64,000 bases of DNA from Lacunisphaera sp. Its GTDB lineage: Bacteria > Verrucomicrobiota > Verrucomicrobiia > Opitutales > Opitutaceae. The DNA is taken from NCBI GenBank assembly GCA_035545835.1, contig DASZXO010000022.1, forward strand, positions 1,092-65,091, in the 5' to 3' direction. Position 1 is the first letter of the stretch, and each line of letters opens with the position of its first letter. A program made the position numbers and the translations under genes. Below, one piece after another: positions 19,758-60,103 of the stretch. The notes beneath the pieces are model-generated. The model did no database searches. It had not been told where the DNA came from and was given only the letters and a program-made list of their open reading frames with translations.

Positions 19758-19883
19758 GCGCGACGGTAAGACAGGCGGCCAGCCGAACGCTACAGGGATT
19801 TTCCCCGGCGGCGGGAAAAAACGGTAAAGCCCGGGCCATTCGCAGTTGCCGCAACCGGCCCGTCCGGCAGTGTGGGCGGGAAC

Positions 19884-20606
19884 ATGCCCCTGCCGCCCGT
19901 GCTGTACGCCGACGACGAGCTGGTCGCCCTCGACCAGCCGGGCGCGGCCCCCGGCGAAACCGCCGGCATCGGCGCGGCGGTGCGCCGGGAGTTCGGCCCG
20001 GACACGGTGGTGGCCAGCCGGCCGGACCCGGAGGCGAGCGGGGTGGTGCTTTACGCCCGCACGCGCGGGGCGCGCGATTTTCTTTCCGGCCAGTTCCAGG
20101 CGCGGACCGTGCGGCCGCGGCAGCTGGCGCTGGTGACCGGCCTGCCCGCGATGGACGCGTTCATCGCGGAATACGTGCTGAAGGACGACGAGGCCCGACC
20201 CGGGCGGCTGTGCGTGGTCAGGAAGCACGGGCAGCCGGCGCGCACGGAGTTTGCCGTGCTGGAGAGATTCCCGGCGCCGGCCGGCCGGCCCGCCTTCGCC
20301 TGCGTCGAGGCCCGGCCCGATTCCGGCCGGCCGCACCAGGTCCGCGTGCACCTGGCGACGACGGGCACGCCGGTGCTGAACGACGCGGCCTATGGCAACG
20401 ACACCCGGCTGCTGCTCTCGGGCCTCAAGCGCGGGTACAAGGGGCGCGCCGACGAGCGGCCGCTCATCGCCCGCCTGGCGCTCCACACCGCGGCGCTCAC
20501 CTTCCGGCACCCGCGCACCCGCGAGCTCCAGACCGTCGAGGCGCCGCTGCCGCACGATTTCGCCGTCGCGCTCAAGTACCTGCGCAGATTCGTGTCGCCC
20601 GGTTGA
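19884..20606 (+). CDS. RluA-family pseudouridine synthase-like protein with degenerate motifs
   Basis: SRPDPEASG (canonical HRLDxxTSG), SGRPHQVRVH, NDAAYG and LALHTAALTFRHP. Confidence 0.8.
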   Translation: MPLPPVLYADDELVALDQPGAAPGETAGIGAAVRREFGPDTVVASRPDPEASGVVLYARTRGARDFLSGQFQARTVRPRQLALVTGLPAMDAFIAEYVLKDDEARPGRLCVVRKHGQPARTEFAVLERFPAPAGRPAFACVEARPDSGRPHQVRVHLATTGTPVLNDAAYGNDTRLLLSGLKRGYKGRADERPLIARLALHTAALTFRHPRTRELQTVEAPLPHDFAVALKYLRRFVSPG

Positions 20607-20675: not shown

Positions 20676-22676
20676 ATGAGTGAAAAACCTCCGGTGACCC
20701 ACACCGTTGATGCCGACGGCGTCGGCTGGATCAGCTTCGACGACCCGGCCAGCCGGGCCAACATCTTCAACCCGGCGACGCAGGCCGCCCTGGGCGGCGT
20801 GGTGACCGCGCTGGCCGCGCAACCGTTGAAGGCGGTCGTGGTCGTGAGCGCGAAGGAACGCATCTTCATCGCCGGGGCGGACCTGAAATGGCTGGCGCAG
20901 CTGCCCGATCCGGCGGCGGCCAAGCAGGCCGCGCGCGCCGGCCAGGAACTGTTCGCGCGGCTCGGCGCCCTCAAGGTGCCGGTGGTGTGCGCCATCCACG
21001 GCGCCTGCGCCGGCGGCGGCTACGAGCTGGCGCTGGCTTGCCACTGGCGCATCGCGAGCGACGCGAAGGAGACGGTCATCGGCCTGCCCGAGGTCGGCCT
21101 GGGCCTGATCCCCGGCTGGGGCGGCTGCGTGCGGCTGCCGCGGCTCGTCGGCGCGCCGGCGGCCGTGGCCCACATCCTGAAGGCCGCGCTGGTGCCCGCG
21201 ACCGAGGCCCTCGCCGCGGGGCTGGTCGACGAACTTGCGCCCGCCGCCGAGCTGAAGGCCCGTGCCCGGGCCGCCGCGCTCCGTCTCGCCGCCGAGGGCC
21301 CGCCGCGCCGGGCGGAGCCGCCGGCCGCGCCCGCGGACTTCTTCCCCGCGCAACGCAAGGCCGTGCTCACCCGCCAGCGCCACCAGCCCGCGCCGCTGGC
21401 CGTGCTCGACGCCGTCGAGCAGACCGCCGGCCTGCCGCTGGCGCCCGCCCTTGACCTCGAGGCGGCGCTGTTCGGCCGCATCGCCACCGGCGAGATCGCG
21501 CGCAACCTGCTGCACGTGCACTTTCTCAAGGACGCGGCGAAGAAGGCCACGCTCGACCCCTGGTTTCCCGGCACGCCCGCCGCGCCGAAGCTGGCGCCGT
21601 TTCGCACCGTCGGCATCGTCGGCGCCGGCGTGATGGGCTCGGGCATCGCGCACTGGTGCGCACTGCACGGGCTCGGGGTCATCCTGTGCGACGAGAAGCG
21701 CGAGGCGCTCGAGCACGGCGTCGAGGTGATCCGCGGGCTGTTCCGCGACGCGGTGAAGCGCGGGAAGCTCACGCACGAGGCCGCGCACAAGATGACCGGC
21801 GGCATCGGCATCACGACCAGCCTCGAGGATTTCGAGATCTGCGACCTGATCATCGAGGCCGTGGTCGAGAACGTGGAGGTAAAGCGCCAGGTGTTCGCCG
21901 CGCTGAGCAAGGTCGCGGCCCCGGACTGCGTGCTGGCCTCGAACACCTCGGCGCTGCCGATCGAGGAGCTGGCGTCCACGGCGACGAACCCCGGCCGCGT
22001 CGTCGGCCTGCATTTCTTCAACCCGGTCGGGCGCATGCCGCTGGTCGAGCTGGTCCTGAGCCCGCACACCGCGCGCGAGACGGCCGACCGCGCGCTCGCG
22101 TTCGTGCGGGCGCTGGGCAAGACGGCGGTCGTCTGCCGGTCCGCGCCGGGCTTCCTCGTCACGCGCGTGCTGTTCTTCTACCTGAACGAGGCCTGCCGGC
22201 TCTGGGAGGAGGGCGTGCCGGCGGCGGCGATCGACGGCGCGATGCGCGACTGGGGCTGGCCCATGGGCCCGCTGCGGCTCATCGACGAGGTCGGCCTCGA
22301 CGTGTCGGATTTCATCTACGGCGAGATGCAGCACTATTACCCGGACCGCTTCACGCCGACCGCGGTGTGCGGCCGGCTCCTCGGGGCGGGCCAGCGCGGG
22401 CGCAAGAACGGCGCGAGCGCGGGCTTCTACACCTATGCGGACGGGCGCGAGGAGCCGAACCCCGCGTTGGAGCCGTTCACGCCCATTCCCCCGATGCAGC
22501 TGGAAGCGGCGGCGATCCAGGAGCGGCTCAACGGCGTCATGATCGCCGAGACCCGGCGCGTGCTGGCCGAGGGCGTGCTGCAGTCGGCCGACGAGGCCGA
22601 CCTGGCGCTGCTGCTCGGCGCGGGCTTTCCCGCCTGGCGCGGCGGCCTGCTGCACCTGGCCGGCGCGAAAGCATGA
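20676..22676 (+). CDS. fadJ: Fatty acid oxidation multifunctional enzyme (enoyl-CoA hydratase / 3-hydroxyacyl-CoA dehydrogenase), FadJ-like
   Basis: GGGYELAL and LPEVGLGLIPGWGG hydratase motifs; GAGVMG, SNTSALPI, GLHFFNPV and PMGP dehydrogenase motifs. Start ATG 20676. Confidence 0.9.
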   Translation: MSEKPPVTHTVDADGVGWISFDDPASRANIFNPATQAALGGVVTALAAQPLKAVVVVSAKERIFIAGADLKWLAQLPDPAAAKQAARAGQELFARLGALKVPVVCAIHGACAGGGYELALACHWRIASDAKETVIGLPEVGLGLIPGWGGCVRLPRLVGAPAAVAHILKAALVPATEALAAGLVDELAPAAELKARARAAALRLAAEGPPRRAEPPAAPADFFPAQRKAVLTRQRHQPAPLAVLDAVEQTAGLPLAPALDLEAALFGRIATGEIARNLLHVHFLKDAAKKATLDPWFPGTPAAPKLAPFRTVGIVGAGVMGSGIAHWCALHGLGVILCDEKREALEHGVEVIRGLFRDAVKRGKLTHEAAHKMTGGIGITTSLEDFEICDLIIEAVVENVEVKRQVFAALSKVAAPDCVLASNTSALPIEELASTATNPGRVVGLHFFNPVGRMPLVELVLSPHTARETADRALAFVRALGKTAVVCRSAPGFLVTRVLFFYLNEACRLWEEGVPAAAIDGAMRDWGWPMGPLRLIDEVGLDVSDFIYGEMQHYYPDRFTPTAVCGRLLGAGQRGRKNGASAGFYTYADGREEPNPALEPFTPIPPMQLEAAAIQERLNGVMIAETRRVLAEGVLQSADEADLALLLGAGFPAWRGGLLHLAGAKA

Positions 22677-22822
22677 AGATTTACGCCGGCGGACGCGCGC
22701 CGCGGAAGCCGTTGCCGGACTAGGCCAAACGAGTGAATCCTCCCGCGGCGGTCGCGGCCGGCTGGCGAAATGCATTGCCGTGGGACACGGTTTTGGGACG
22801 TAATCGCGCCGAGTTCCACGCC

Positions 22823-25800
22823 ATGGCCACCGCCACGACCCTGAACAAAGAACAGAAGCGGCACCTGCTGCTGACGATGCTGGAGAGCCGCCTCGGCGAC
22901 CTGCGCGAGGAGAGCCTGAACCGCCAGGGCAAGGGTCACTTTCACGTCTCGGGCCGCGGGCACGAGGCGTTGTGCGCCCTCGGCGCGCAGCTGCGCGACA
23001 GCGATTACCTGGTGCCGTATTATCGCGACCGCGGGCTGTGCCTGGGGCGCGGCCTGACGACCAAGTACCTCGCCCTGGAATATTTCTCGAAGCGCGACTC
23101 GGCCTCGCGCGGCCGGATGATGCCCTCGCACTACTGTTCGCGGGAGCACAACATCGTGAGCGTGCCGACGCCGACCGGGTCGCAGCTCCTGCCGGCGTGC
23201 GGCATCGCCTGGGGCCTGCAGCTCGACCAGAAGGATGGCGTCGTCGTCACCTGCATCGGCGACGCGGCCACCCGCCAGGGCGACTTCTACGAGGCGCTGG
23301 CCTTTGCCCAGGAAAGGAAGCTGCCGCTGCTCGTGGTCGTCGAGGACAACGCCTACGGCATCTCGACGCCGACGCGGAAGACCAACCCGCTGGCGCTGGC
23401 CGTGCTCAACCAGGCGCAGTGGGTCGAGGTTGACGGCGCCAACGCCGAGGCCGTGCACGCCGCGTCGCGCCAGGCGCTCGCGGAGCTGCGCGAGGGCCGC
23501 GGCCCGGTGTTCCTGTGGGTGCGGGTCGAACGGCTGTCGAGCCACACGAGTTCGGACGACCACAGCCTGTACCGTTCGAAGGAGGACCTGGCGGCGCTCG
23601 AGCAGGCCGACCCGATTCGCAACCTGAAGCTGCGGATGATCCAGGACGGCGAGCTGACCGAGGCGGAGTTCGCCGCCCTCGAGGCGGAGCTCAAGGAAAA
23701 GGTGCGCCGGGACTACGCCGCCGCCGAACAGGCCGAGAACCCGCGCGCCGACGAGCTGATGCTCGAGACGCTCGCACCCTCGCCGGAGCTGAACGAGGAA
23801 CTCTTTCCCGCCGGCAAGTACCGGATGGGCGACCTGATCAACCGCACGCTGCGCGCCGGGCTCGATGCCGACCCGGGCCGCATCATCTTCGGCGAGGACG
23901 TCGAGGACCCGAAGGGCGGGGTGTTCCGGCTGACCCAGAAGCTCACGACGGATTTTCCCGGCCAGGTGTTCAATTCCCCGCTGGCGGAGTCGACCATCGT
24001 CGGCCTCGCGGGCGGGCTGGCGCTGTACGGCCGCCGGCCGGTCTTCGAGATCCAGTTCATCGATTTCATCTTTCCCGGCTTCAACCAGCTCGTCTCCAAC
24101 CTCGCCAACCTCCGCTGGCGCACGAACGGCGAGTGGAAGGTACCCGCGGTCATCTACGCCCCGTATGGCGCGTACCTGCCCGGCGGCGGGCTGTGGCACT
24201 CGCAGGCCAACGAGGCGGCGTTTGCGCACTTTCCGGGCATCAATGTCGTCGTGCCGAGCACGCCCGAGGACGCCGCCGGCCTGCTCTGGACGGCGATGCA
24301 CGCGGAGGACCTCGTGCTTTTCCTCCTGCCCAAGCACATGCTGTGGGCGGAGCGCGCGGTGGCGGAGCCGGTGATGTCGGTGCCGCTCGGCGTCGCGCGC
24401 CGCTGCCTCGAGGGCACCGACCTCACGCTCGTCGCCTGGGGCAACACGATGGAGAAGGCGTACGAGGCCATCGCCCAGCTGAAGGGCGAGGTCGGCGTCG
24501 ACCTGATCGACCTGCGCTCGATCGTGCCCTGGGACAAGGCGCTGGTTGAGGAGTCCGTCCGCCAGACCGGCCGGCTGGTCGTCGTGCAGGAGGACACGGA
24601 GAATTGCTCCGTCGGCCAGATGATCATCACGCACGTCATGGGCCAGCCCGACTTGTGGGCGGGGATGAAGGCCCCGCCGGTGCTCGTGTCGAAGGGCAAC
24701 GTGATGATCGGCTACAACCCGATCTACGAATATGCCGCGCTGCCGGACACGCCGCGGATCGTCGACGCCATCTGGCGCACGGTGTCGGTGCACCACGCGC
24801 ATGACGAGTCCATGGCCTCGAGCGTCGCGCCGATGCCGGTCGCGCCGGCCGCGGCGCCCGCCCCGGCCGAGGGCCACGCGCCGCAGAACACCGTGATCGC
24901 CGGGACCAGCGACATCATCGTCCGCGTGCCGATCATGGGCGAGGGCCTGCGCTCGGCGCGCGTGGTCTCGCTCAACAAGAAGCCCGGCGATCCCGTGCAG
25001 CACGACGACGTGCTCTGCGAGGTCGAGACCGACAAGGCGGTTTACCCGATCGAGGCTTCCTTCGCCGGCCAGCTCAAGGAATGGCGCATCCAGCTCGATG
25101 ACACCGTGCTCATCGGCCAGGACATCGCGGTCGTCACCGGCGATGCCGCCAGCGTCGCGGCCCTGCCGGTGGAGGGCGCCGCGCCCGCGGCCACGGTGGC
25201 CAAACCGGCCGCGGTCGCCCCGGCCCGATCGGGCGCCGGGTCCGACCCCGCGAAGGCGGGGACCAACCCCGCCGTGCCGGCAAAGATTTCCAACTCCCCC
25301 GGTCCCATGAAAGGCAACACCCGTCCGCCCGCCCTGCACCCGGCCATCACCAAGCGGCTCGATGCCGTCGTCCCCGCCACCATGCTCATGGATGTCCGCT
25401 GGGAAAACCTGCGGCTGGCCCGGGAGGAGGCGAAGAAGAAATTCGGCCAGAATGCACCGTCGCCCTCGGCGATGATGGCGTGGTGCATCGTGCGGACCCA
25501 GGAGAAGCACGCGGCCTTCCGCTGCGTCGTCAATCGCGAGGGCGCGATCCTGGAGCAGGCCGACTTCGAATGTGGCGTGGCCGTCGCGCTCGACGGCGAC
25601 CGCCTCGCGACGGCCGCAATCCCGGCCGCCAACCGCCTCGGCTGGGCCGATTTCGTCGCGGCCTACCACCGGGCCGTGGAGGAGACCCGCGCCGGCCGCC
25701 TGATCGACGTGCAGGCGCCGATGAACATCACCAGCCTCGGCGCGTTCGGCGTCGAGAGCGCGACGCCGATCGTGGTGCCGCCGGCCATGGCGACGATCTT

Positions 25801-25969
25801 CCTTGGCTCGGCGCACGAGCGCCTGATCAACGACGGCGGCGTGATCCATCCCGCCGAGGTCATCACGCTCTCGCTGACATTTGACCACAAGGTCGTCAAT
25901 GGCGCCGGCGCCGCCTCCTTCATGCGCGACCTGCGCGTGGAGCTGGAGGGCTTCCGGCTGCCCGGGTGA
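22823..25969 (+). CDS. Single-chain 2-oxoacid dehydrogenase: E1alpha + E1beta + lipoyl domain + E2 acyltransferase core (branched-chain type likely)
   Basis: GDAATRQGDFYE...EDNAY TPP motif; RLSSHTSSDD; FGEDV..GGVFR, SPLAES and GLWHSQ; ETDKA lipoyl lysine; TFDHKVVNG E2 catalytic motif; one uninterrupted frame. Start ATG 22823. Confidence 0.92.
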   Translation: MATATTLNKEQKRHLLLTMLESRLGDLREESLNRQGKGHFHVSGRGHEALCALGAQLRDSDYLVPYYRDRGLCLGRGLTTKYLALEYFSKRDSASRGRMMPSHYCSREHNIVSVPTPTGSQLLPACGIAWGLQLDQKDGVVVTCIGDAATRQGDFYEALAFAQERKLPLLVVVEDNAYGISTPTRKTNPLALAVLNQAQWVEVDGANAEAVHAASRQALAELREGRGPVFLWVRVERLSSHTSSDDHSLYRSKEDLAALEQADPIRNLKLRMIQDGELTEAEFAALEAELKEKVRRDYAAAEQAENPRADELMLETLAPSPELNEELFPAGKYRMGDLINRTLRAGLDADPGRIIFGEDVEDPKGGVFRLTQKLTTDFPGQVFNSPLAESTIVGLAGGLALYGRRPVFEIQFIDFIFPGFNQLVSNLANLRWRTNGEWKVPAVIYAPYGAYLPGGGLWHSQANEAAFAHFPGINVVVPSTPEDAAGLLWTAMHAEDLVLFLLPKHMLWAERAVAEPVMSVPLGVARRCLEGTDLTLVAWGNTMEKAYEAIAQLKGEVGVDLIDLRSIVPWDKALVEESVRQTGRLVVVQEDTENCSVGQMIITHVMGQPDLWAGMKAPPVLVSKGNVMIGYNPIYEYAALPDTPRIVDAIWRTVSVHHAHDESMASSVAPMPVAPAAAPAPAEGHAPQNTVIAGTSDIIVRVPIMGEGLRSARVVSLNKKPGDPVQHDDVLCEVETDKAVYPIEASFAGQLKEWRIQLDDTVLIGQDIAVVTGDAASVAALPVEGAAPAATVAKPAAVAPARSGAGSDPAKAGTNPAVPAKISNSPGPMKGNTRPPALHPAITKRLDAVVPATMLMDVRWENLRLAREEAKKKFGQNAPSPSAMMAWCIVRTQEKHAAFRCVVNREGAILEQADFECGVAVALDGDRLATAAIPAANRLGWADFVAAYHRAVEETRAGRLIDVQAPMNITSLGAFGVESATPIVVPPAMATIFLGSAHERLINDGGVIHPAEVITLSLTFDHKVVNGAGAASFMRDLRVELEGFRLPG

Positions 25970-26004
25970 GCCGGGTTGGTGCGGTTGAAGGCGGGACCTG
26001 CCGG

Positions 26005-26078
26005 GTGGAGGCGGGACGCCCGCGTGCCGCGGGTTGCCATTCGTGCTTGCTCCTCGCGGGGTGAGGGCACCCCGCCGC
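26005..26078 (+). repeat. REPIN-like family A copy
   Basis: GTGGAGGCGGGACGCCC...CCTCGCGGGGTGAGGGCACCCCGCC. Confidence 0.85.
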
Positions 26079-26230
26079 CGGCTCCCGACGGCATGGATTA
26101 TTTACGCTGGCACGCGGATCTTGCGAAGAATCCCGCATCGCCCGGCGGCGGCGATACTCAGGCTCGCTTTTGGACCGCGGCTGCGTATGGTCTGCGGCTC
26201 GGGACAGGGCCGGTCCCGAACCCACGCTGC

Positions 26231-27361
26231 ATGACCAGCCCCTCCCATTCCACGCCGGTGACGAACCCGCTGCGGCAAGCCTTGAAGATCCTGGTGATCG
26301 AGGACGACGCCCGCTGGCGGACGCTGATCGAAATCCAGCTGCAATCGGCGGGACACACGGTCCTCACCGCCGCCGACGGCCTGGCCGGCCTCGCGCTGGC
26401 GACCGAGAAGCCCGACGTGATCCTGTGCGACGTGGAGATGCCGCGGCTCAACGGCTACGGCGTGCTCGAGGCGCTGCACCAGCAGCCGGGCCTGAGCGAA
26501 ATCCCGTTCATCTTCCTGACCGGGCGCACCGCCCGGGCCGAACAGCGCAAGGGCATGGTGCTCGGCGCCGACGATTTCATCACCAAGCCGTTCCAGCCGG
26601 AGGAACTCCTGGCGAGCATCCGCACCGTCCTGGCCAAGCGGCAGTCGCTCGCGCAGCGCCTCCACGCGTACACGGAGGAGCACCAGCGCGAGATCACCGC
26701 GCCGTGGGCGCATGAGCTCCTGACGCCGCTCAATGGCATCCTCGGCATGGCCGCCATGCTGGAAGCGGAGCCGGGGATGATCTCGCCGCTGGATTTGCGC
26801 GAGATGGCCCGGTCCATCCGGCAATGCGCGCGCCGCCAGCAGGCGCTCGCGCACAAGCTCGTCCGCCACTTCCAGCTCGAGCAATTCCGGCAGACCGGCT
26901 GGAGCGATTCCGCCGCGGAGGCGGAGGCGGCCGCGTGCCTCGAGGACGAGTTGCTCGGCGTGGCCGAACAGGCTGGCCGTCCTTCCGACCTGCAGCTGCG
27001 GTGCGAGGAAGCGCTGGTGCGCATCAGCCCCGCCTGGCTGCGGGTGGCCGTGGCGGAGCTGGCCGAAAATGCCTTCAAGTTCTCGGCGCCCGGCGCGCCC
27101 GTCACGGTGACGGCGGGCGAGGTCGAGGGCCTCTATCGCATCGAGGTCGAGGACCGCGGGCCCGGCATGGGCGACCGCGAGCGGGCCGGCATCGGCGCCT
27201 TCCGGCAGTTCGGCCGCGCGCAACATGAGCAACAGGGGCTCGGCCTCGGGTTGTCGACGGTGCGCAGCATCGCGCAGTTGCACCGCGGCACCCTCGAACT
27301 GCAGCCGGGCACGGGAGGGTTCGGCCTGCGCGCCATCCTCGCGTTGCCGCTGGTGGAGTGA
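26231..27361 (+). CDS. Hybrid response regulator / histidine kinase (REC-HisKA-HATPase)
   Basis: ILVIEDD, ILCDVEMP, FITKPF; H-box HELLTPL; N-box ELAENAFKFS; VEDRGPGM and GLGLGL. Start ATG 26231 or GTG 26258. Confidence 0.92.
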   Translation: MTSPSHSTPVTNPLRQALKILVIEDDARWRTLIEIQLQSAGHTVLTAADGLAGLALATEKPDVILCDVEMPRLNGYGVLEALHQQPGLSEIPFIFLTGRTARAEQRKGMVLGADDFITKPFQPEELLASIRTVLAKRQSLAQRLHAYTEEHQREITAPWAHELLTPLNGILGMAAMLEAEPGMISPLDLREMARSIRQCARRQQALAHKLVRHFQLEQFRQTGWSDSAAEAEAAACLEDELLGVAEQAGRPSDLQLRCEEALVRISPAWLRVAVAELAENAFKFSAPGAPVTVTAGEVEGLYRIEVEDRGPGMGDRERAGIGAFRQFGRAQHEQQGLGLGLSTVRSIAQLHRGTLELQPGTGGFGLRAILALPLVE

Positions 27362-27407
27362 GCTGATCGGGTGGAGCCCGCGCTCCATGAGGACTGAATG
27401 CCGCCTG

Positions 27408-27484
27408 GTGGAGGCGGGACGCCCTCGTCCCGCGGGATGCAATTCGCGCTGCTGCCTCGCGGGGTGAGGACACCCCGCCTCCCA
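27408..27484 (+). repeat. REPIN-like family A copy
   Basis: GTGGAGGCGGGACGCCCTCGTCCCGCGGG...CCTCGCGGGGTGAGGACACCCCGCCTCCC. Confidence 0.85.
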
Positions 27485-27538
27485 GCGTGGCCAACCCGCG
27501 CGGAGTGAAGGTTCCGCCGCCAGCCCAGCCGCGCGCCG

Positions 27539-28081
27539 CTACCGCGGCAGCCCGGCTTCGCGTGCGACCCGCCGCAACGGCTCGTCCTGCGGGTAGATCT
27601 GCAGGAACTGTTGCAGGAAAAGGTCGGTGGCCGGGCTGAAGTTGGCGTGGTTCACCTCGACGCCGTCGCGGCTGACGAGCACGACGTGGCAGAGGAAGCA
27701 GAAGTCGCAGGTCACCACGTCGGCGCCGTGGTGGAAACGGAGCCGCAGGTAGAGCGACGGCCGCCGGCCGCCGTGCGCCCGCCAGTCGTAGGTCTTTTCA
27801 TCCAGCAGCAGGTCGCGCAGCGCCCCGGCGACGGGCGCCGGCACGACCGTGAACGTCGTGTCCTCGTAGCGCTCGGTCTTCCAGTCGATCCGCCCGTCGG
27901 GCAGCTCGGCGGCGGGAATGTGCCTGAGCAGGCAGCTGTCCACCCGGTCGGCGGTGCGGACGATGCCGAGGTTTTCGGGCGAGCCAAAGAGGCGGGCGAC
28001 ATCCTCCGGGTGGTCGGCGGCGGGCGCGGCGCCGACGCCGAGCAGGGCCGACAGGGAAATGAGGGAACGCTTCATGATCAT
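27539..28081 (-). CDS. Hypothetical secreted protein with CxxCxxC (CDFCFLC) motif
   Basis: Signal peptide MIMKRSLISLSALLGVGAAPA; start overlaps the mutase stop (ATGA at 28081-28078). Confidence 0.7.
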   Translation of the reverse strand: MIMKRSLISLSALLGVGAAPAADHPEDVARLFGSPENLGIVRTADRVDSCLLRHIPAAELPDGRIDWKTERYEDTTFTVVPAPVAGALRDLLLDEKTYDWRAHGGRRPSLYLRLRFHHGADVVTCDFCFLCHVVLVSRDGVEVNHANFSPATDLFLQQFLQIYPQDEPLRRVAREAGLPR

Positions 28082-29823
28082 ACCATGGGCCGGAATTTTC
28101 CGACGATGCCGGTGAGACAGGCGGTGATCTGGCCGAGGGAGCACACTTCCACCGTCGACACGAGCTCGGCGAAGACGTTCCCACCGCCGCGCACGACGTT
28201 CTCCAGGCGCTGCAGCGCGGCGGGCGCCTGCTTCGCATGCCGGCGCTTGAAGGCGCGCAACCGTTCGACCTGCAGGCGCTGCCGGCGCGGCGGGGTGCGG
28301 GCCAGCGGGACATGCGGCATCGGCTCATCCGTCTTGTAGCGGTTGAGGCCGATGATGGGCCGGGCGCCGCCGTAGACCTGCTCCTCGTAGGCGTGGCCGG
28401 CCTCCTGGATCTTGCTGCGCTGGTAGCGCTGCTCCTGCGCGGCGAGCACGCCGCCGAGCGTGTCCATCTCGCGGAACACGTCGAGGATCGCCTTCTCCAC
28501 CTGCTGCTCGAGGACGAGCAGGCCGGGCGCGCCGCCGAACATGTTCATCATGTGTTTGAACACGCCGGACTCCTCGAGGATGATCGACTGGCCGTGCGAG
28601 GCGAGCGTGGCGTATTTCTCCGTCGGCGTCGTGAACGGCTCGTCCGCGGAGTTGGAGTGGCACGAGTTCGTGTAGTTGAGGTAGGCGAGCATCAGCTCGA
28701 CCGCCGTGCGCGTGAGGTTGTTCTGGAACTCGGCGGCGATCAGCGAGCGGCCGGAGGTCTGCGTGTGGAGCTTGAGCAGCTGCGCCTTGCTGGAGGCGCC
28801 GAAGACGTCGCGCATGCCGATGGCCCAGAGGCGCCGGGCCACGCGGCCGAGCACGAGGTATTCGACGTCGAGCCCGCAATCGAGGAAGAACGACAGGCGC
28901 GGGCCGAACTGGTTGACGTCGGCGCCGCGCTGCTTGAGCAGCTCGACGTAGGTGAAGCCGTTGGCCAGCGTGAAGGCGGCCTGCTGCACCGGCGTCGCCC
29001 CGGCCTCGGCGATGTGGTAGCCGGAGATCGAGACGGGGTACCAGCGCGGCAGGTTCGGCACGCACCACTCGATCATGTCGCAGAGGAACCGCAGCGACGC
29101 CTCGATCGGGAAGATGACCTCGTTCTGCGCCTGCACTTCCTTCAGCATGTCGGCCTGGATCGTCCCGCGGAGCTGGGCGAGGCAGCCCGGCCCGAACCGG
29201 CGCTTCGCGGCGGCGATGAACATCGCGAGGATGACCGGCGCCGGCGCGTTCATGGTCATCGAGACGGACGCATCCTTCCGCGTGAGGTCGAAGCCGGCGA
29301 AGAGCCGGGCCATGTCCTCGACGGTGTCGATGGCCACGCCGCCCTCGCCAACCTTGCCGAGCACGCCTGGGTGGTCGGAATCGAGGCCGTAGAGCGTGGG
29401 CCCGTCGAAGGCCGTCGAAAGCCGCAGGCTCTTCTGGTGCGAGCTGAGGTAGTGAAAGCGCTTGTTGGTGTCCTCGGCCAGCCCGAGCCCGGCGAACAGC
29501 CGCATCGGCTCCTCGCCGGCGCCGCTGTCGCGGTCGAGATACATCTCGCGGTAGGCGGCGTTGGCGTAGGGGAACTCGCCCGGCAGGCCCTGGCCGAGGA
29601 GGTAGCTGGCGATGACGCCCGGGTCGTCGGTCTGGGGCAGGGCGAGGCGCGGCAGCGGCGTGCCCGTGGGCGACACGGTCCAGTCGATCGACTCGTGGAT
29701 TTGGGCCCAGCGCTCGCGGAGCTCGGCAGCGAAGCGGGTGTCGGTGCGCGCACGGGCCACCTCGGCGGTGACATGCGCGTTGTAGGCGTCGACGGCGTCG
29801 GCGATGCGTCCGAGCTGGCTCAT
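28078..29823 (-). CDS. B12-dependent acyl-CoA mutase substrate-binding subunit (C-terminal half of split IcmF, isobutyryl-CoA mutase type)
   Basis: PMRLFAG, RLSTAFD, QADMLKEVQAQN, ISGYHIAEAGA, LSFF and HTQTSGRSL; no B12-binding domain at the C-terminus. Confidence 0.9.
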   Translation of the reverse strand: MSQLGRIADAVDAYNAHVTAEVARARTDTRFAAELRERWAQIHESIDWTVSPTGTPLPRLALPQTDDPGVIASYLLGQGLPGEFPYANAAYREMYLDRDSGAGEEPMRLFAGLGLAEDTNKRFHYLSSHQKSLRLSTAFDGPTLYGLDSDHPGVLGKVGEGGVAIDTVEDMARLFAGFDLTRKDASVSMTMNAPAPVILAMFIAAAKRRFGPGCLAQLRGTIQADMLKEVQAQNEVIFPIEASLRFLCDMIEWCVPNLPRWYPVSISGYHIAEAGATPVQQAAFTLANGFTYVELLKQRGADVNQFGPRLSFFLDCGLDVEYLVLGRVARRLWAIGMRDVFGASSKAQLLKLHTQTSGRSLIAAEFQNNLTRTAVELMLAYLNYTNSCHSNSADEPFTTPTEKYATLASHGQSIILEESGVFKHMMNMFGGAPGLLVLEQQVEKAILDVFREMDTLGGVLAAQEQRYQRSKIQEAGHAYEEQVYGGARPIIGLNRYKTDEPMPHVPLARTPPRRQRLQVERLRAFKRRHAKQAPAALQRLENVVRGGGNVFAELVSTVEVCSLGQITACLTGIVGKFRPMV

Positions 29824-31031
29824 GCGGTCACCTCCATCCAGCAGGCCTTGTCGCCGCCGGTGGACGGGGCGAGGCCGCCCCGCTGCGCGAGCGCGTCAAA
29901 GAGGGCGTCCACGCCCGGGTCGAAGTGCCGCGCGGCGGTGGTCGGGTAAAGCCGGCGGCCCTTGCCGTCCTGGTCCAGCCGCGCCTGGATCTCGGCGCGG
30001 GCCGTGTGCGCCATCGGGTGGTCGCACTTGTTCAGCGCGACGAAATCGGCGCCCGCCAGCAGCGCGATCTTCTGCAGCTGGATGCGGCCGCCGTAATGCG
30101 GCGGCAGGACGAAGAGCGTGGCATCGACCAGCGGTGGCCCGCGGCCGAAGGTGCGGAACGGATCGCTTTCCTGGCCGACACCGACGGACTCGACGAGGAC
30201 CAGGTCGAACTCGCCGGCCTCGCGCAGGATCCCGATGGCCGCGGGCGCCGCGGCCGACAGGCCGGTGAGGCTGCCGCGCGTCGCGAGCGAGCGGAAGAAC
30301 ACGCGGTCGTCCTGGGCGTAGATGGCGGAGACGCGGTCGCCGAGGATGGCGCCGCCGGAGTCGGGATGCGACGGGTCGTTGGCCAGGATCGCGATGCGGC
30401 CGCCGGGGCAGCGCCGGAGAAAGCGGGACACGAGTTCGTCGATCAGCGTCGATTTTCCGGCGCCCCCGGGTCCGGCCACGCCGAGGACAAAAGCGCGCGA
30501 AGCGCGCTTCAGGTGTGAGGCCGGAGGTTTGAGGGGGGAGGGGTTCGACTCCGCCAGCGTGATGGCGCGGGCGAGGGCGCGGTCGCCCGTGAAGCGGGCG
30601 TTCGGCCGGCCCGGGCGCGCATAGTCGCGCTTGATGGTGGCCATGATCTCCGCGAGCGGCGTGCCGGCGAAGAAGATGCGGTCGGTGCCCTGCCGCTTCA
30701 TCACGCGCTCGTCAGCCGGCGTGATCGTGCCGCCCCCGCCGCCGAAGACGGGGATGTCGCCGCCGCCGCGCTGCCTGAGCTGGGCGACGACCTCCCGGAA
30801 GAAGACGATGTGGCCGCCGTTGTACGAGCTGAGGCCGACGACGTTGACGTCCTCCTGCACCGCCGCGCGGACGATGGCGGACACGGGCTGGTGATAGCCG
30901 AGGTAGATGACCTCGATGCCGTGGCTGGCGAGCTCAAGGTTGATCGTGGTCACGGCGCTGTCGTGGCCGTCACAGAGCGGCACGGCCGTCAGGATGCGCA
31001 CGGGGGCGGGGGCGTGGGAACGGGCGGACAT
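29820..31031 (-). CDS. Cobalamin-binding domain + MeaB/ArgK-type GTPase chaperone (N-terminal half of split IcmF)
   Basis: CDGHDSAV (DxHxxG-like), [41 protein letters not shown] and NKCD. Start ATG 31031. Confidence 0.9.
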
Positions 31032-31159
31032 TCCGGCGAAGCGAATCCGAGAATGGCGCCGGGCGCAATGGCCGAGGGAGCCCGCGGGGGGCGAATTCCT
31101 CCCTTGGGAGTAGGGGACAACTCGGTCGACAGCCGGCTCCGGCCCGGCATGATGGGCCC

Positions 31160-32113
31160 ATGCACTTTCGCGACCTGAACGAGGCACAGCTCCTCGCGGT
31201 GGCCATCGGCGCCGAGGAGGAGGATGCGCACATCTACCGGGACTTCGCCGCCTCGCTGGAGGCGGAATTCCCCGCCTCGGCCGAGCTCTTCCGGCGGATG
31301 GCGGAAGAGGAGTCGAACCACCGCCACCGGCTCATCGAGGCCTACCGCCGGAAATTCGGCGAACACATCCCGCTGATCCGGCGGCAGGACGTGAAGGGTT
31401 TTCTCGTGCGGCGGCCGTCCTGGCTGGCGCGCACGCTCCGGCCGGAGACGGCGCGCGGGGAGGTGGCGTTGATGGAACTCGAGGCGCGGCGCTTCTACGA
31501 GGCGGCGGCGGCCCGGAGCACGGATGCCGCCATCCGCCAGCTGCTGGGCGACCTCGCGCAGGAGGAGCAGAAGCACGAGGCCACGGCCGAGCTGGTCGGC
31601 GGCGCGCAGGAAGCGTCCGGGCAACTGCACGAGGAACGGCTGGCCGCGCGCCGGATGTTCGTGCTGCGTTTCGTGCAACCGGGCCTGGCCGGGCTGATGG
31701 ACGGATCGGTCTCGACGCTCGCGCCGCTGTTTGCCGCGGCCTTCGCCACCGGCAACACGTCCGAGACCTTCAAGGTCGGCCTGGCTGCGTCGGTCGGCGC
31801 CGGCATCAGCATGGGCTTCGCCGAGGCGCTGTCCGACGACGGCAAGCTCAGCGGACGCGGCGCGCCCTGGCTGCGCGGCGTGGTCTGCGGCCTGATGACC
31901 ACGCTCGGCGGCATCGGGCACACGCTGCCCTATCTCATCCGCAACTTCCACACCGCGACGTCGGTGGCGATCGCGGTGGTGGTGGTCGAGCTCGGCGTGA
32001 TCGCCTGGATCCGCAAGCGCTACATGGACACGCCGCTGCTGGCGGCGATCTCCCAGGTGGTGGTGGGCGGCGTGCTCGTGTTCATCGCCGGCTGGCTGAT
32101 TGGCGCCGGGTGA
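31160..32113 (+). CDS. mbfA: Rubrerythrin-VIT1/CCC1 fusion iron exporter
   Basis: EEED..IY and [10 protein letters not shown] ferritin-like motifs; [23 protein letters not shown] and [14 protein letters not shown]. Confidence 0.93.
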
Positions 32114-56522: not shown

Positions 56523-58004
56523 CTATTTGGCGAAGGCCGCGATGAACGCGTGCACCGGCATCGCCTCGAGACGGGCGCGGTTGGCGAAGAGTTCCATCAG
56601 GCGGGCGGCCTTTTCGGCGCCGTAGTGGTTGAGGAAGGCGGCGTGCGCCTTGTGCTGGAGGAGTGGGATGCCCTCCTTGCGGCGGCGGCGGTGGCCGATC
56701 GGGTACTCGACGGCGATCCTCTCGGTCGAGCGGCCGTCGTCGAAGAAGACCTGCACGGCGTTGGCGATGGAGCGCTTCTCGGGGTCGAGGTAGTCCTTCG
56801 TGTATTGCGGGTCCTCGGTCACGACCATCTTCGCCCGCAGCGCATCGATGCGCGGGTCGGCCGCGGCGTCGTCCTCATAATGCCCCGCGTGGAGCGTGCC
56901 GTGGAGCAGCCCGATGGCGGTCATGTACTGGAGGCAGTGGTCGCGGTCGGCCGGGTTGTGGAGCGGGCCGGCCTTGTCGATGATGCGCAGGGCCGACTCG
57001 TGCGTCGTGATCTCGATGCGCTCGATTTCCTCGATGCGGCGGCTGCGAACCTGCTGGTGGAGGTGCACGGCGCACTCGACGGCGGTTTGGGCGTGGAACT
57101 CGGCGGGGAAGGAGATCTTGAAGAGCACATTCTCCATCACGTAGCTGCCGAGCGGCCGGCCGAGGCGCACCGGCTGGCCCTTGAACGCGACGTCCTGGAA
57201 GCCCCAGGTTTTGGCCGTGAGTGCGGACGGGTAGCCCATCTCGCCCGTCATGGCGATGAGCGCGAGGCGCACGCCGCGGCTGGTGGCGTCGCCGGCGGCC
57301 CACGACTTGCGCGAGCCGGTGTTGGGCGCGTGGCGGTAGGTGCGCAGCGCGGAGCCGTCGAGCCAGGCGTGGGAGATCGCATTGATCACCTGTTCGCGTG
57401 TCGCCCCGAGCATGACGGCGGCGACCGCGGTCGAGGCGACGCGGACGAGCAGCACGTGGTCGAGGCCGACGCGGTTGAAGGCGTTCTCGAGCGCGAGCAC
57501 ACCCTGGATCTCGTGGGCCTTGATCATGGCCGTGAGAACCTCGCGCATCGTCAGCGGCGCCGGGTGCGGCGGCAGGAGCGAGTGATAGGCGGCGGGCGCG
57601 ATATGGGCGGCCTGGTGGCGCGAGAGCCAGTCGCCGACGCCGAGGATCGCGCCGAGGTTGTCGGACGGGTGGCCCCATTCGGCGGCGAGCCAGGTGTCAT
57701 TGAAATCGAGCCAGCGGATGATCGTGCCGATGTTGAAGGCCGCGGCGACGGGATCGAGTTCGTGGGCGGTGCCGGGCACGCGCGCGCCGTGCTGGATGGC
57801 GGCGCCGGGCACCACCGGTCCCAGCAGCTTGGTGCAGGCCGGGTAGGCGAGCGCCATGACGCCGCAGGCGAGGGTGTCGGCGAGGCACCAACGGGCGGTG
57901 TCGTAGGCCTCCTCGCTGGCGATCTGCGCGCCCAGGGCATAGTCGGCGAGGTCGACCAGCAGCTGGTCGGGCGGCGGGCGGACGTTGGAGAGATGGGAGG
58001 ACAT
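56523..58004 (-). CDS. prpD: 2-methylcitrate dehydratase
   Basis: [58 protein letters not shown] and DRDHCLQY. Confidence 0.97.
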
Positions 58005-58079
58005 GGAGTGGATCGGGCCCTGACTTCTACTCGTTCCCGTCAACCGAGAGAACGAGAAAGATCATGGGAACGAGAAGGA

Positions 58080-59231
58080 TTACCTTTGCTCCAGCGGCAC
58101 ATAAGGCCGGTCGGCCGGGCCGGTGTAGTTCGCCGCGGGCCGGATGATCTTGCCGTCGGCCCGCTGCTCGATGACGTGCGCGGCCCAGCCGGCAGTGCGG
58201 GCCATGACGAAGAGCGGCGTGAACATCAGCATCGGCACCCCCATCAGGTGGTAGGCCACGGCGCTGTACCAGTCGAGGTTGGGGAACATCCGCTTCTCGG
58301 CCCACATGAACTTCTCGATGCGCTCGGCCACGCCGAACAGCGTGCCGCTGCCGGACTGGTCCGACAGCTCGCGGGCGACCTGCTTGATGATGGCGTTGCG
58401 CGGGTCGCTGACGGTGTAGACCGGGTGGCCGAAGCCGATGACGATCTCCTTGCGCGCGACGCGGGCGCGGATGTCCGCCTCGGCGGCATCGGGCGCCGGG
58501 TAGCGCTGCTGGATCTCAAGGGCCACCTCGTTGGCGCCGCCATGCTTCGGGCCGCGCAAGGCGCCGATCGCGCCGGTCAGGCATGAATAGATGTCGGAAC
58601 CCGTGCCGGCGATGACGCGTGCGGTGAAGGTGGAGGCATTGAACTCGTGCTCGGCGTAGAGGATCAGGGAGCGGTCGAGGGCGCGGACATGCGCCGGCGG
58701 CGCCGGCTGCTGGTGCAGCAGGTGCAGGAAGTGGGCGGCGAGCGAGTCGTCGGCCGTCTCGGTCTCGATGCGCCGCCCGGCCGTGGCGAAATGGTGCCAG
58801 TAGGCCAGCATCGACGGGAATGTCGCGAGCAGCCGGTCGGCGATCTCCCGCGCGCCCTCGGCTGACGTGGGCGGGACCCGCTCCGGTTCAAGGTGCCCGA
58901 GGACCGAGCAGCCCGTGCGGAGAACGTCCATCGGGTGCGCGGCGGCGGGAATCTCCTCGAGGACGGAGCGGAGCGTCCGCGGCAGGCCGCGCAACCGGAT
59001 GAGCCTGGCCCGGTAGGCCTCGAGCTCGGCGCGGTTCGGCAGGCGCTCGTGGACGAGCAGGTGCGCGACCTCCTCGAAGGTCGCCTGCGCCGCGAGTTCG
59101 GCGATGTCATAGCCGCGGTAATGGAGGTCATTGCCGGACTGGCCGACGGTGCAGATCGCGGTGTTGCCGGCGGGCACGCCGGAAAGGGCGACGGATTTCT
59201 TGGCCTTGGGGGCGGGGGGCTCGGAAGACAT
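58080..59231 (-). CDS. prpC: 2-methylcitrate synthase
   Basis: [42 protein letters not shown] and FPNLDWYSA; lies between prpB and prpD. Confidence 0.95.
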
Positions 59232-59260
59232 CGTGGGTGGGGATCAGTGCGATCCGGGAG

Positions 59261-60103
59261 CTAGGGCTTCCCGGTGGGCGGGGTGTACCCGAGGGTGGCG
59301 TAGAGGTCGGCGCGGGTCTGCATGCGGCCGACGACCGAGGCCTGCGTCCCCTCGCGGCGGATCGCCGTGTACACCTCGAGCGAAGCGGCCGCGGCGGCGC
59401 GGGAGGCGGACAGCGGGTAGAGCGCCATCGCGACGCCGGCGGCGCGCAGCTCGGCGGGGGAAAAGAACGGCGTCTGCCCGAACTCGGTGAGGTTGGCCAG
59501 CACCGGAGCCTTCACGGCGGCGGCGAAGGCATGGTAATCCTCGAGCGTGCGCAGCGCCTCCGGGAAGATCATGTCGGCCCCGGCGGCCACATAGGCCTGC
59601 GCCCGGGCGATCGCGCCGGGGACGCCTTCGTTGGCGGCGGCGTCGGTGCGCGCCATGACGACAAAGCTGGCGTCGGGCTTGCCGGCGACGGCGGCGCGCA
59701 CGCGGTCGATCATTTCGGACGTCGGCACCAGGTGCTTGCCCGGCAGGTGGCCGCAGACTTTCGCCGGCACCTGGTCCTCGAGGTGCACGGCCGCGGCGCC
59801 GGCCGCGGCCAGCGCCCGGACCGCGCCGGCGGGATCGTCCCAACCGGTGTCGATATCGACGAGCAGCGGCAGCGGCACGCGCCGGGTGATGCGGCGGACG
59901 TCGATCAGGACATCGTCCAATTCGGTCAGGCCGACATCGGGCACGCCGCAGGAGTGGTTGGCGACGCCGCCGCCGGAAAGGTACAGCGCGCGGAATCCGG
60001 CCCGTTGCGCGAGGAGCGCCGCGTAGGCGTTGATCGCGCCTGCAATCTGCAGCGGCTGCTCGGCCTGGAGGGCGGAGCGGAACCGGGAACCGGGCGAGGG
60101 CAT
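59261..60103 (-). CDS. prpB: Methylisocitrate lyase
   Basis: LYLSGGG, LLVDIDTGW, HLEDQ, KVCGHLPGK, ARTDA, DMIFPEA and LANLTEFGQTP. Start ATG 60103. Confidence 0.93.
   Translation of the reverse strand: MPSPGSRFRSALQAEQPLQIAGAINAYAALLAQRAGFRALYLSGGGVANHSCGVPDVGLTELDDVLIDVRRITRRVPLPLLVDIDTGWDDPAGAVRALAAAGAAAVHLEDQVPAKVCGHLPGKHLVPTSEMIDRVRAAVAGKPDASFVVMARTDAAANEGVPGAIARAQAYVAAGADMIFPEALRTLEDYHAFAAAVKAPVLANLTEFGQTPFFSPAELRAAGVAMALYPLSASRAAAAASLEVYTAIRREGTQASVVGRMQTRADLYATLGYTPPTGKP

Follow-up and report, generated by a model that had tools for sequence, protein, structure and literature searches.

The 64,000-nt stretch of DNA analysed here (contig DASZXO010000022.1, assembly GCA_035545835.1, Lacunisphaera sp., Opitutaceae; referred to as the window in the rest of the text) carries two convergent gene units, one with a FadJ-like enzyme and a fused E1alpha-E1beta-lipoyl-E2 dehydrogenase on the forward strand, and the other with a split IcmF-type mutase pair on the reverse strand. 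Judged from sequence, we give about an even chance to the reading that these units are part of a gene set for branched-chain acyl-CoA catabolism that rearranges within Opitutaceae and would process valine via butyryl-CoA. The genes lie and face as a preliminary description of this DNA had placed them, and the enzyme assignments made there hold by Pfam, NCBIfam and PDB alignment.

The mutase is encoded by two genes on the reverse strand. The first (29820..31031) codes for a 403-aa fusion of a B12-binding domain and a MeaB G-protein chaperone (Pfam B12-binding and MeaB, the latter with 130 bits); its ORF spans 29820-31187 and the true start is probably M53, at 31031. Its stop overlaps the start of the second gene (28078..29823), which codes for the substrate TIM-barrel subunit (Pfam MM_CoA_mutase), as ATGA at 29820-29823. 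The two products match positions 2-393 and 506-1073 of the NCBIfam IcmF model, respectively, the fusion corresponding to the N-terminal two-thirds of an IcmF and the barrel scoring 537 bits. Alignment of the barrel with the PDB structure of IcmF, 4XC6, gave 425 bits and placed Phe110 and Gln233 on Phe598 and Gln742, which we take, from the alignment offsets, to be the substrate-signature residues of IcmF. Phe and Gln in isobutyryl-CoA mutase (ICM) replace the Tyr and Arg of MCM under a published two-position rule (PMC7238569). The fusion protein conserves the DGHD His-ligand motif and the P-loop (GxGGAGKS; GPGGAGKST here) relative to 4XC6. The pair has an ICM-type active site, and we predict that it is a split IcmF-type isobutyryl-CoA mutase; the direction and substrate that we assign to it in vivo are putative. 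It is the sole acyl-CoA mutase of the genome, in which no methylmalonyl-CoA mutase was found.

Both proteins find their best match, in PDB as in NCBIfam, in IcmF of Cupriavidus metallidurans (4XC6; NCBIfam NF045497), with which they share the domain order B12-binding, MeaB G-domain, barrel as well as the DGHD, P-loop and Phe/Gln signatures. However, IcmF is a single polypeptide whereas the window version is split after the G-domain into two genes, and the summed score of the pair (537 + 261 bits) falls far short of the equivalog threshold (1500). Among the class orthologs found (≥64% identity), every open frame except one spans only about 590-690 aa, which suggests that splitting is the norm there; the exception, G091, has 965 aa, and its genome also has two separate genes. 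The IcmA/IcmB type of Streptomyces cinnamonensis, which connects valine catabolism with n-butyryl-CoA, has the Phe/Gln signature in common with the window mutase, as well as the reaction predicted for the latter, but its small B12 subunit stands alone and its MeaB is separate, while both are fused into one protein here. Its context also differs, being polyketide precursor supply rather than the catabolic context (FadJ, thiolase, acyl-CoA dehydrogenase) of the window mutase.

The fused dehydrogenase (22823..25969 on the forward strand; referred to as E1E2 below) is a one-chain 2-oxoacid dehydrogenase matching Pfam E1_dh, Transket_pyr, Transketolase_C, Biotin_lipoyl and 2-oxoacid_dh, whose ORF extends over 22733-25969 and whose database start is M31, at 22823. 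It has in common with the Bkd complex the TPP E1alpha/E1beta domains, the lipoyl domain with its DKA lysine motif and the E2 catalytic domain (DHKxxxG), but joins E1alpha, E1beta and E2 as one polypeptide, and its E2 domain is divergent (104 bits compared to about 275-280 bits for the other E2s of the genome). A peripheral subunit (E1/E3)-binding domain (PSBD) gave no PF02817 match in the fused protein at E ≤ 0.001, and the Ala/Pro-rich linker (residues 800-875) shows no PSBD-like motif; the PDH-type E2s of the genome carry this domain. For the E1 parts, the best PDB match was the branched-chain E1 of Thermus (1UM9), and a search for homologs of the whole protein returned 4137, with the automatic name 2-oxoisovalerate dehydrogenase E1. 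Four loci of Chthoniobacterales have the fused dehydrogenase followed by genes for an enoyl-CoA hydratase (ECH), an HMG-CoA lyase and a carboxyltransferase (CT), leucine-catabolic neighbours with which a BCKDH role of the dehydrogenase fits. The PDH and OGDH complexes of the genome are accounted for, and a prp cluster on a different contig contains a third E2. E1E2 appears BCKDH-like, with a substrate specificity that we infer from similarity to Thermus E1b, from the neighbours and from the automatic names.

Upstream on the same strand, the gene at 20676..22676 codes for a FadJ-like enoyl-CoA hydratase/3-hydroxyacyl-CoA dehydrogenase (Pfam ECH_1, 3HCDH_N and 3HCDH), the sole bifunctional FadJ-type protein of the genome. 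It resembles the FadJ/FadB alpha subunit in having hydratase and dehydrogenase domains on a single chain, but the top NCBIfam models, FadJ and FadB, gave 492 and 459 bits, below equivalog cut-offs of about 870 (869 for FadJ), and there is no adjoining FadI/FadA thiolase. Most Opitutaceae loci have FadJ immediately 5′ of E1E2, and this holds down to 56% identity; the two are a conserved pair across the family, beyond chance. Ten genomes have FadJ beside E1E2 reduced to a 200-aa remnant, and the mutase is missing in all ten. These genomes form one clade and the co-loss is one event on the tree; it therefore carries no statistical weight, and we dropped it as a statistical argument.

The gene for a pseudouridine synthase (19872..20606, forward strand; Pfam PseudoU_synth_2) is a syntenic neighbour upstream of FadJ, with the order pseudouridine synthase, FadJ, E1E2 kept in about 40 loci; it may be co-transcribed with FadJ and is outside the pathway. 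At the other end, a hybrid response-regulator/histidine-kinase gene (25976..27361, forward strand; Pfam Response_reg, HisKA and HATPase_c) begins 7 bp past the dehydrogenase stop and is kept downstream of E1E2 in 21 loci, making it a possible operon member or regulator. The forward unit would consist of FadJ, E1E2 and then the hybrid kinase. The intergenic region separating it from the reverse unit (27362..27538) folds with a minimum free energy of −98.1 kcal/mol (z = −3.25; 0 of 200 shuffles folded equally well) and is likely a bidirectional terminator between two transcription units. Last in the reverse unit is a gene (27539..28081) for a small secreted protein (signal peptide; about 180 aa) with no match in Pfam or NCBIfam, whose start overlaps the stop of the mutase barrel gene (ATGA), suggesting translational coupling; homologs come after the mutase in four loci (L001, L011, L013 and L039). 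An Rfam scan of the window matched no family, cobalamin riboswitch included.

The Lacunisphaera-like host is a freshwater Verrucomicrobium. As had been noted before, neither an acyl-CoA dehydrogenase (ACAD) nor a thiolase nor an E3 is encoded in the window; the rest of the genome has two to three ACADs, an Lpd and one strong thiolase of the acetoacetyl-CoA type (contig C4). Only three crotonase-fold genes were found in the genome, coding for MenB, a Liu-type ECH and FadJ, of which the latter two are of the beta-oxidation type; a crotonase on contig C2, considered as a fatty-acid enzyme, was rejected since it is MenB by sequence. The preliminary description was also right about prpBCD in the window: prpD (56.5-58.0 kb), prpC (58.1-59.2 kb) and prpB (59.3-60.0 kb) of the methylcitrate cycle occupy 56523..60034 of the reverse strand, with NCBIfam scores of 792-829 bits for prpD, 645 bits for the 2-methylcitrate synthase and 361-413 bits for prpB, all above the equivalog cut-offs. 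ORFs at 44.8-48.9 kb were rejected as candidates for these genes. MMSDH is encoded twice in the genome, once with pyrimidine-catabolic genes and once with a prp/sugar-acid-like cluster. The distal canonical valine route may therefore be present, and the proposed bypass of the usual methacrylyl-CoA route is hypothetical, although the two MMSDH genes stand in other contexts.

Proximity of the mutase to E1E2 was counted in 80 loci and co-occurrence in 50 E1E2-bearing genomes. In 20 of the 80 loci the mutase is no more than 10 kb away from E1E2, the spacer between them varying from 0-7 kb; this adjacency changed at least seven times on the E1E2 tree, and 34 of the 50 genomes have the mutase whereas 16 lack it. 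The grouping of the mutase with E1E2 thus goes beyond chance only in part, and of the neighbourhood anticipated for the three genes it is the FadJ-E1E2 pair that proved conserved, while the compact three-gene system did not survive the comparison.

The commonest operon partners of the mutase are ACAD, CT, AtuA and ECH, not E1E2 or FadJ, and many Opitutaceae have the operon ACAD < B12MeaB > mutase > CT > AtuA > AtuA_ferredoxin > ECH. Such operons share ACAD, an acyl-CoA carboxylase beta-type CT, AtuA with AtuA_ferredoxin, and ECH with the Liu/Atu systems of Pseudomonas (LiuA-E, AtuA-H). However, they have no biotin carboxylase/BCCP subunit, a B12 mutase is no part of the Pseudomonas pathways, and the module is absent from the window and sits on other contigs. 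Of the 50 genomes, just 16 have AtuA, 12 of them among the 34 that carry the mutase and 4 among those lacking it, for which reason obligate coupling of mutase and AtuA was rejected. In a locus of another family (L105), the order is thiolase > B12MeaB > mutase > two acyl-CoA synthetases together with a 3HCDH-ECH bifunctional enzyme, and in one of a third family (L106) the mutase pair adjoins an acyl-CoA synthetase and a FadJ at 51% identity. The grouping of the mutase with thiolase, acyl-CoA synthetases and hydratase/dehydrogenase enzymes elsewhere supports the view that it feeds beta-oxidation. All modules come together in a locus of another genus, L113 (ACAD < B12MeaB > mutase > CT > AtuA > ECH > convergent with E1E2 < FadJ). 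The low proximity, the Liu/Atu-like operons and this supercluster together speak for a gene set that rearranges and against a fixed system of three genes. What stands of the valine reading is its BCKDH context, the ICM active site and beta-oxidation links in three families; the fixed linkage does not.

Under the rearranging-set reading, E1E2 with Lpd acting in trans would convert branched-chain 2-oxoacids by oxidative decarboxylation to isobutyryl-, isovaleryl- and 2-methylbutyryl-CoA, and the mutase would turn isobutyryl-CoA into n-butyryl-CoA. An ACAD encoded elsewhere would then make crotonyl-CoA, which FadJ would hydrate and oxidize to acetoacetyl-CoA for cleavage into two acetyl-CoA by the single acetoacetyl-CoA thiolase. 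FadJ could also serve isoleucine (tiglyl-CoA), with the propionyl-CoA passing to the methylcitrate cycle. Valine flux through the mutase route in this bacterium is presumed. Formation of butyryl-CoA from valine via ICM is also known from anaerobic isobutyrate degraders. The idea of a route from valine through isobutyryl-CoA to butyryl-CoA is likewise shared with Streptomyces, since ICM is induced by valine in S. albus and the isobutyryl-to-butyryl-CoA by-pass is documented there (PMC8176718). The chemistry of the route is thus not undescribed but known; the one-piece E1E2 and split-mutase architectures and their grouping are not described.

The mutase may instead belong to the Liu/Atu-like module (ACAD, CT, AtuA-type lyase and ECH) and act on acyl-CoAs with a beta-methyl branch, such as those derived from leucine or pivalate (pivalyl-CoA to isovaleryl-CoA, for instance), its place beside E1E2 being a leftover of an ancestral supercluster. 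This would account for the ACAD-mutase-CT-AtuA-ECH operon of many Opitutaceae, whose partners, the commonest of the mutase, point to leucine, isovaleryl or beta-methyl-branched substrates, and for the full supercluster of L113; in the genome to which the window belongs, contigs C69/C35 carry a mutase-free copy of the CT/AtuA module, and IcmF enzymes interconvert isovaleryl- and pivalyl-CoA (PMC10481361). A full-text literature search on pivalyl-CoA mutase and on AtuA/DUF1446 gave no match. We nevertheless hold this explanation to be rather unlikely, as the AtuA counts make the link non-obligate, the mutase active site keeps the Phe/Gln of ICM, and the L105 and L106 families pair the mutase with thiolase, FadJ-type enzymes and acyl-CoA synthetases. 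In the genome of the window, the mutase pair departed from CT/AtuA and remained with E1E2/FadJ.

A second explanation is anabolic or homeostatic: the dehydrogenase would be a housekeeping supplier of primers for iso/anteiso fatty acids, the mutase would balance isobutyryl- against n-butyryl-CoA primers (iso-even versus straight-chain lipids), and FadJ would be a mere neighbour. Lacunisphaera species contain 33-49% iso-C15:0, plus anteiso-C15:0, iso-C14:0 and iso-C16:0 (PMC5303756), and with so high a share of iso/anteiso fatty acids in the membranes, primer supply may be the main task of the dehydrogenase. Moreover, E1E2 is kept in all Opitutaceae genomes examined, even in the clade without FadJ and the mutase, the pattern expected of a core function. 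Yet catabolic genes flank E1E2 (FadJ in Opitutaceae; ECH, HMG-CoA lyase and CT in Chthoniobacterales), and the genes grouped with the mutase are those for thiolase, ACAD and acyl-CoA synthetases rather than ones for fatty-acid synthesis. Supplying primers is also compatible with catabolism rather than exclusive of it, and as the main explanation it seems to us improbable. We regard as more improbable still that the adjacency is functionally meaningless, that is, family-level synteny inherited by convergent units that are regulated and used independently. The neighbourhood also conserves housekeeping genes of unrelated function (those for the pseudouridine synthase, GH3 and the Asn/Asp-tRNA synthetase), the E1E2-mutase spacers vary, and a terminator-like structure separates the units, all as plain synteny would have it. 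However, the metabolic genes concerned all act on short or branched acyl-CoAs, and their re-association in differing orders in separate families is left unexplained by synteny.

A bolder form of the rearranging-set reading, which we put forward tentatively and consider doubtful, is that an ancestral Opitutaceae supercluster such as that of L113 (FadJ, one-piece BCKDH, split IcmF, ACAD, alpha-less CT, AtuA-type lyase and ECH) would make up a system of minimal size that is complete for valine, leucine and isoleucine alike. Valine would be processed solely via B12-dependent n-butyryl-CoA, without methacrylyl-CoA or valine-derived propionyl-CoA, and AtuA would replace HMG-CoA lyase for leucine. 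If so, the use of valine and isobutyrate in these freshwater bacteria would be cobalamin-dependent. Biochemically, IcmF-type mutases have been studied thoroughly, whereas what they do in the physiology of most bacteria is not settled. Across several families of Verrucomicrobia the mutase is found repeatedly beside BCKDH, FadJ-type enzymes, thiolase, ACAD and acyl-CoA synthetases, which suggests a catabolic function; two uncommon architectures, the one-piece E1-E2 and the fusion of a B12 domain with its chaperone, would share one metabolic context. If true, the turnover of amino acids by Verrucomicrobia that abound in fresh water and soil would be tied to cobalamin supply.

The window has a G+C content of ~70%, and its gene order was derived from a GC3-based gene call and Pfam analyses. 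After a GH3 gene (- strand) come, all on the + strand, a pseudouridine synthase gene (psiU), the FadJ-like gene (20676-22676), the gene coding for the fused E1α-E1β-lipoyl-E2 dehydrogenase (22823-25969; E1E2) and a gene for a hybrid response regulator/histidine kinase (25976-27361). A 177-nt spacer (27362-27538), which forms a long hairpin (-98 kcal/mol, z = -3.25), separates this unit from a convergent one on the - strand, composed of a small ORF (27539-28081, GC3-based call), the mutase barrel gene (28078-29823) and the gene for the B12-binding + MeaB fusion (29820-31031; B12MeaB), with ATGA overlaps at both junctions. Beyond it are genes for a rubrerythrin-VIT protein (+), a second hybrid kinase (-) and an Asn/Asp-type tRNA synthetase (-), and prpB, prpC and prpD are found at 56.5-60.0 kb. 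Gene call, Pfam and positions bore out every detail given in the preliminary description for the genes that it named, prpBCD included.

The E1 halves of the fused dehydrogenase best match the branched-chain E1 of Thermus thermophilus (1UM9), followed by a Pyrobaculum E1β deposited as a pyruvate dehydrogenase (1IK6), other BCKDH enzymes and Gram-positive-type PDH. The E2 domain of the protein is far more divergent than the other E2s of the genome (104 bits versus ~275-280), and in the stretch that joins it to the lipoyl domain neither Pfam nor sequence inspection detected an E3/peripheral-subunit-binding domain. The same genome also codes for SucAB-Lpd, a canonical PDH whose E1α exceeds the TIGR03182 cut-off, two further E1 sets without E2 and, inside a second prp cluster, a third E2 together with a fused E1α-β. 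Detectable homologs of the fused dehydrogenase number 4137 and are annotated by public pipelines as "2-oxoisovalerate dehydrogenase E1 component" or "TPP-dependent enzyme"; roughly 243 genomes encode the fused form. Relatives of the fused protein belong without exception to Verrucomicrobiota, chiefly to Opitutaceae (Lacunisphaera, Oleiharenicola), the closest being encoded by a Lacunisphaera MAG (91% amino-acid identity). At four Chthoniobacterales loci, genes for an enoyl-CoA hydratase (ECH), an acyl-CoA carboxyltransferase (CT) and, between them, HMG-CoA lyase (NF004283, 217 bits) lie downstream of the fused gene, which places it in a leucine-catabolic setting. A BCKDH role of the fused dehydrogenase is likely.

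The two mutase proteins separately cover positions 2-393 and 506-1073 of the NCBIfam IcmF model and match Cupriavidus metallidurans IcmF (4XC6) with 219 bits (B12-binding + MeaB) and 425 bits (barrel). Aligned to 4XC6, the former keeps the His-ligand motif DGHD and the P-loop, while Phe110 and Gln233 of the barrel align with IcmF Phe598 and Gln742; a Phe/Gln rather than a Tyr/Arg pair distinguishes ICM-type enzymes from methylmalonyl-CoA mutases (PMC7238569). This split pair is the only acyl-CoA mutase of the 93%-complete genome, and propionyl-CoA must therefore enter the methylcitrate cycle, whose genes occur twice. The second set (contig C15:51176-61579), in which PrpB and PrpC are fused into one protein of 700 aa beside PrpD, is flanked by MMSDH, SDR, a fused E1α-β (728 aa), a PDH-like E2 and a FAH-family protein, and is possibly a dedicated 2-oxobutyrate or propionyl-CoA-forming module. 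Mutase orthologs (≥64% identity) were found in 16 of the 251 genomes of the class searched, spread over five families. Since their open frames are short (~590-690 aa), and since genome G091, which has the one exception (965 aa), likewise carries the two genes apart, a split mutase seems to be the norm in this group. The small ORF, whose start overlaps the mutase stop, codes for a secreted protein (signal peptide MKRSLISLSALLGVGAAPA) with no family match. Four related loci also have a homolog of it downstream of the mutase; a secreted protein is an unexpected companion of a B12 enzyme that works in the cytoplasm.

Among the 80 loci compared, most of those from Opitutaceae retain psiU-FadJ-E1E2 in this order, even where identity falls to 56%, whereas nearly all Chthoniobacterales-type loci (57-60% identity; exception, L079) lack it. 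A mutase ortholog is present in 34 of the 50 whole genomes with E1E2, and the E1E2 tree requires at least seven changes of "mutase nearby" and at least five of "mutase present". Cultured carriers include Lacunisphaera limnophila and Oleiharenicola lentus, the latter with its mutase directly convergent with E1E2 (L024). One Opitutaceae clade of 10 genomes retains beside E1E2 only a FadJ remnant, a conserved ORF of about 200-212 aa ~600 bp upstream with just the 3HCDH NAD-binding part (loci L015, L016, L018, L020, L021, L025, L031, L042, L057, L060 and L066); the mutase is found in 0 of the 10, the genome search covering all of these 11 loci except L060. This joint loss of FadJ and mutase is suggestive, but it counts as a single event on the tree.

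In many Opitutaceae the mutase heads an operon, B12MeaB-mutase-CT-AtuA-AtuA_ferredoxin-ECH, divergent from an acyl-CoA dehydrogenase (ACAD) gene, the split mutase sitting between ACAD and the carboxyltransferase. The genome studied here has the CT-AtuA-AtuA_ferredoxin-ECH operon and divergent ACAD minus the mutase (C69:5870-9626 and C35:1-1985), with no biotin carboxylase/BCCP gene in that cluster, and AtuA occurs in just 16 of 50 E1E2 genomes. A locus from another genus (L113) unites everything, the ECH end of the operon being convergent with FadJ-E1E2. Outside Opitutaceae, the mutase pair follows a thiolase gene and precedes genes for two acyl-CoA synthetases and a bifunctional 3HCDH-ECH enzyme (L105), or adjoins genes for an acyl-CoA synthetase and a FadJ of 51% identity (L106). 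A different context is seen in family f20 of the class (L107-L112), where the genes that flank the split mutase are in every case those for an MFS transporter, a small secreted protein and, divergently oriented, an SDR (75-85% conserved). The gene set is a recombining pool of branched-chain acyl-CoA genes. The compact B12-dependent valine route proposed earlier is supported in part: the link between mutase and β-oxidation enzymes recurs in three families, whereas only 20 of the 80 loci have the mutase pair no more than 10 kb downstream of E1E2, the variable genes in between spanning 0-7 kb.

The β-oxidation capacity of the genome is limited, with three crotonases (one FadJ, one Liu-type ECH and MenB), two to three ACADs and a single strong thiolase, which is of the acetoacetyl-CoA type and whose neighbours code for a CoA ligase of the acetate/acetoacetate-CoA ligase family (under equivalog cut-offs) and for proteins that look tyrosine-catabolic by sequence. 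These few enzymes would be enough for the route as proposed: isobutyryl-CoA would be channelled by the split IcmF to butyryl-CoA, feeding FadJ-dependent β-oxidation through crotonyl-CoA and acetoacetyl-CoA to two acetyl-CoA. In anaerobic isobutyrate degraders, isomerisation of isobutyrate to butyrate likewise precedes β-oxidation. The canonical valine route may also be present, given two MMSDH genes, one with dihydropyrimidine dehydrogenase and β-ureidopropionase and the other within a sugar-acid-like/prp cluster. Alternatively, the fused dehydrogenase could act anabolically, as a primer source for iso/anteiso lipids, which are abundant in Lacunisphaera (PMC5303756). Our preferred explanation, at about an even chance of being correct, is that these genes serve the catabolism of branched-chain acyl-CoAs, with isobutyryl-CoA sent by the split IcmF into FadJ-dependent β-oxidation.

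The suggestion that this is an undescribed system survives only for part of it. The reaction sequence is known from Streptomyces, where ICM joins valine to n-butyryl-CoA and valine is the inducer (PMC8176718). What is new is the architectures, namely a one-piece E1-E2 and a B12 domain fused to its chaperone with the barrel separate, the verrucomicrobial setting, and the recurrent grouping of the mutase with BCKDH, FadJ and Liu/Atu-like genes.
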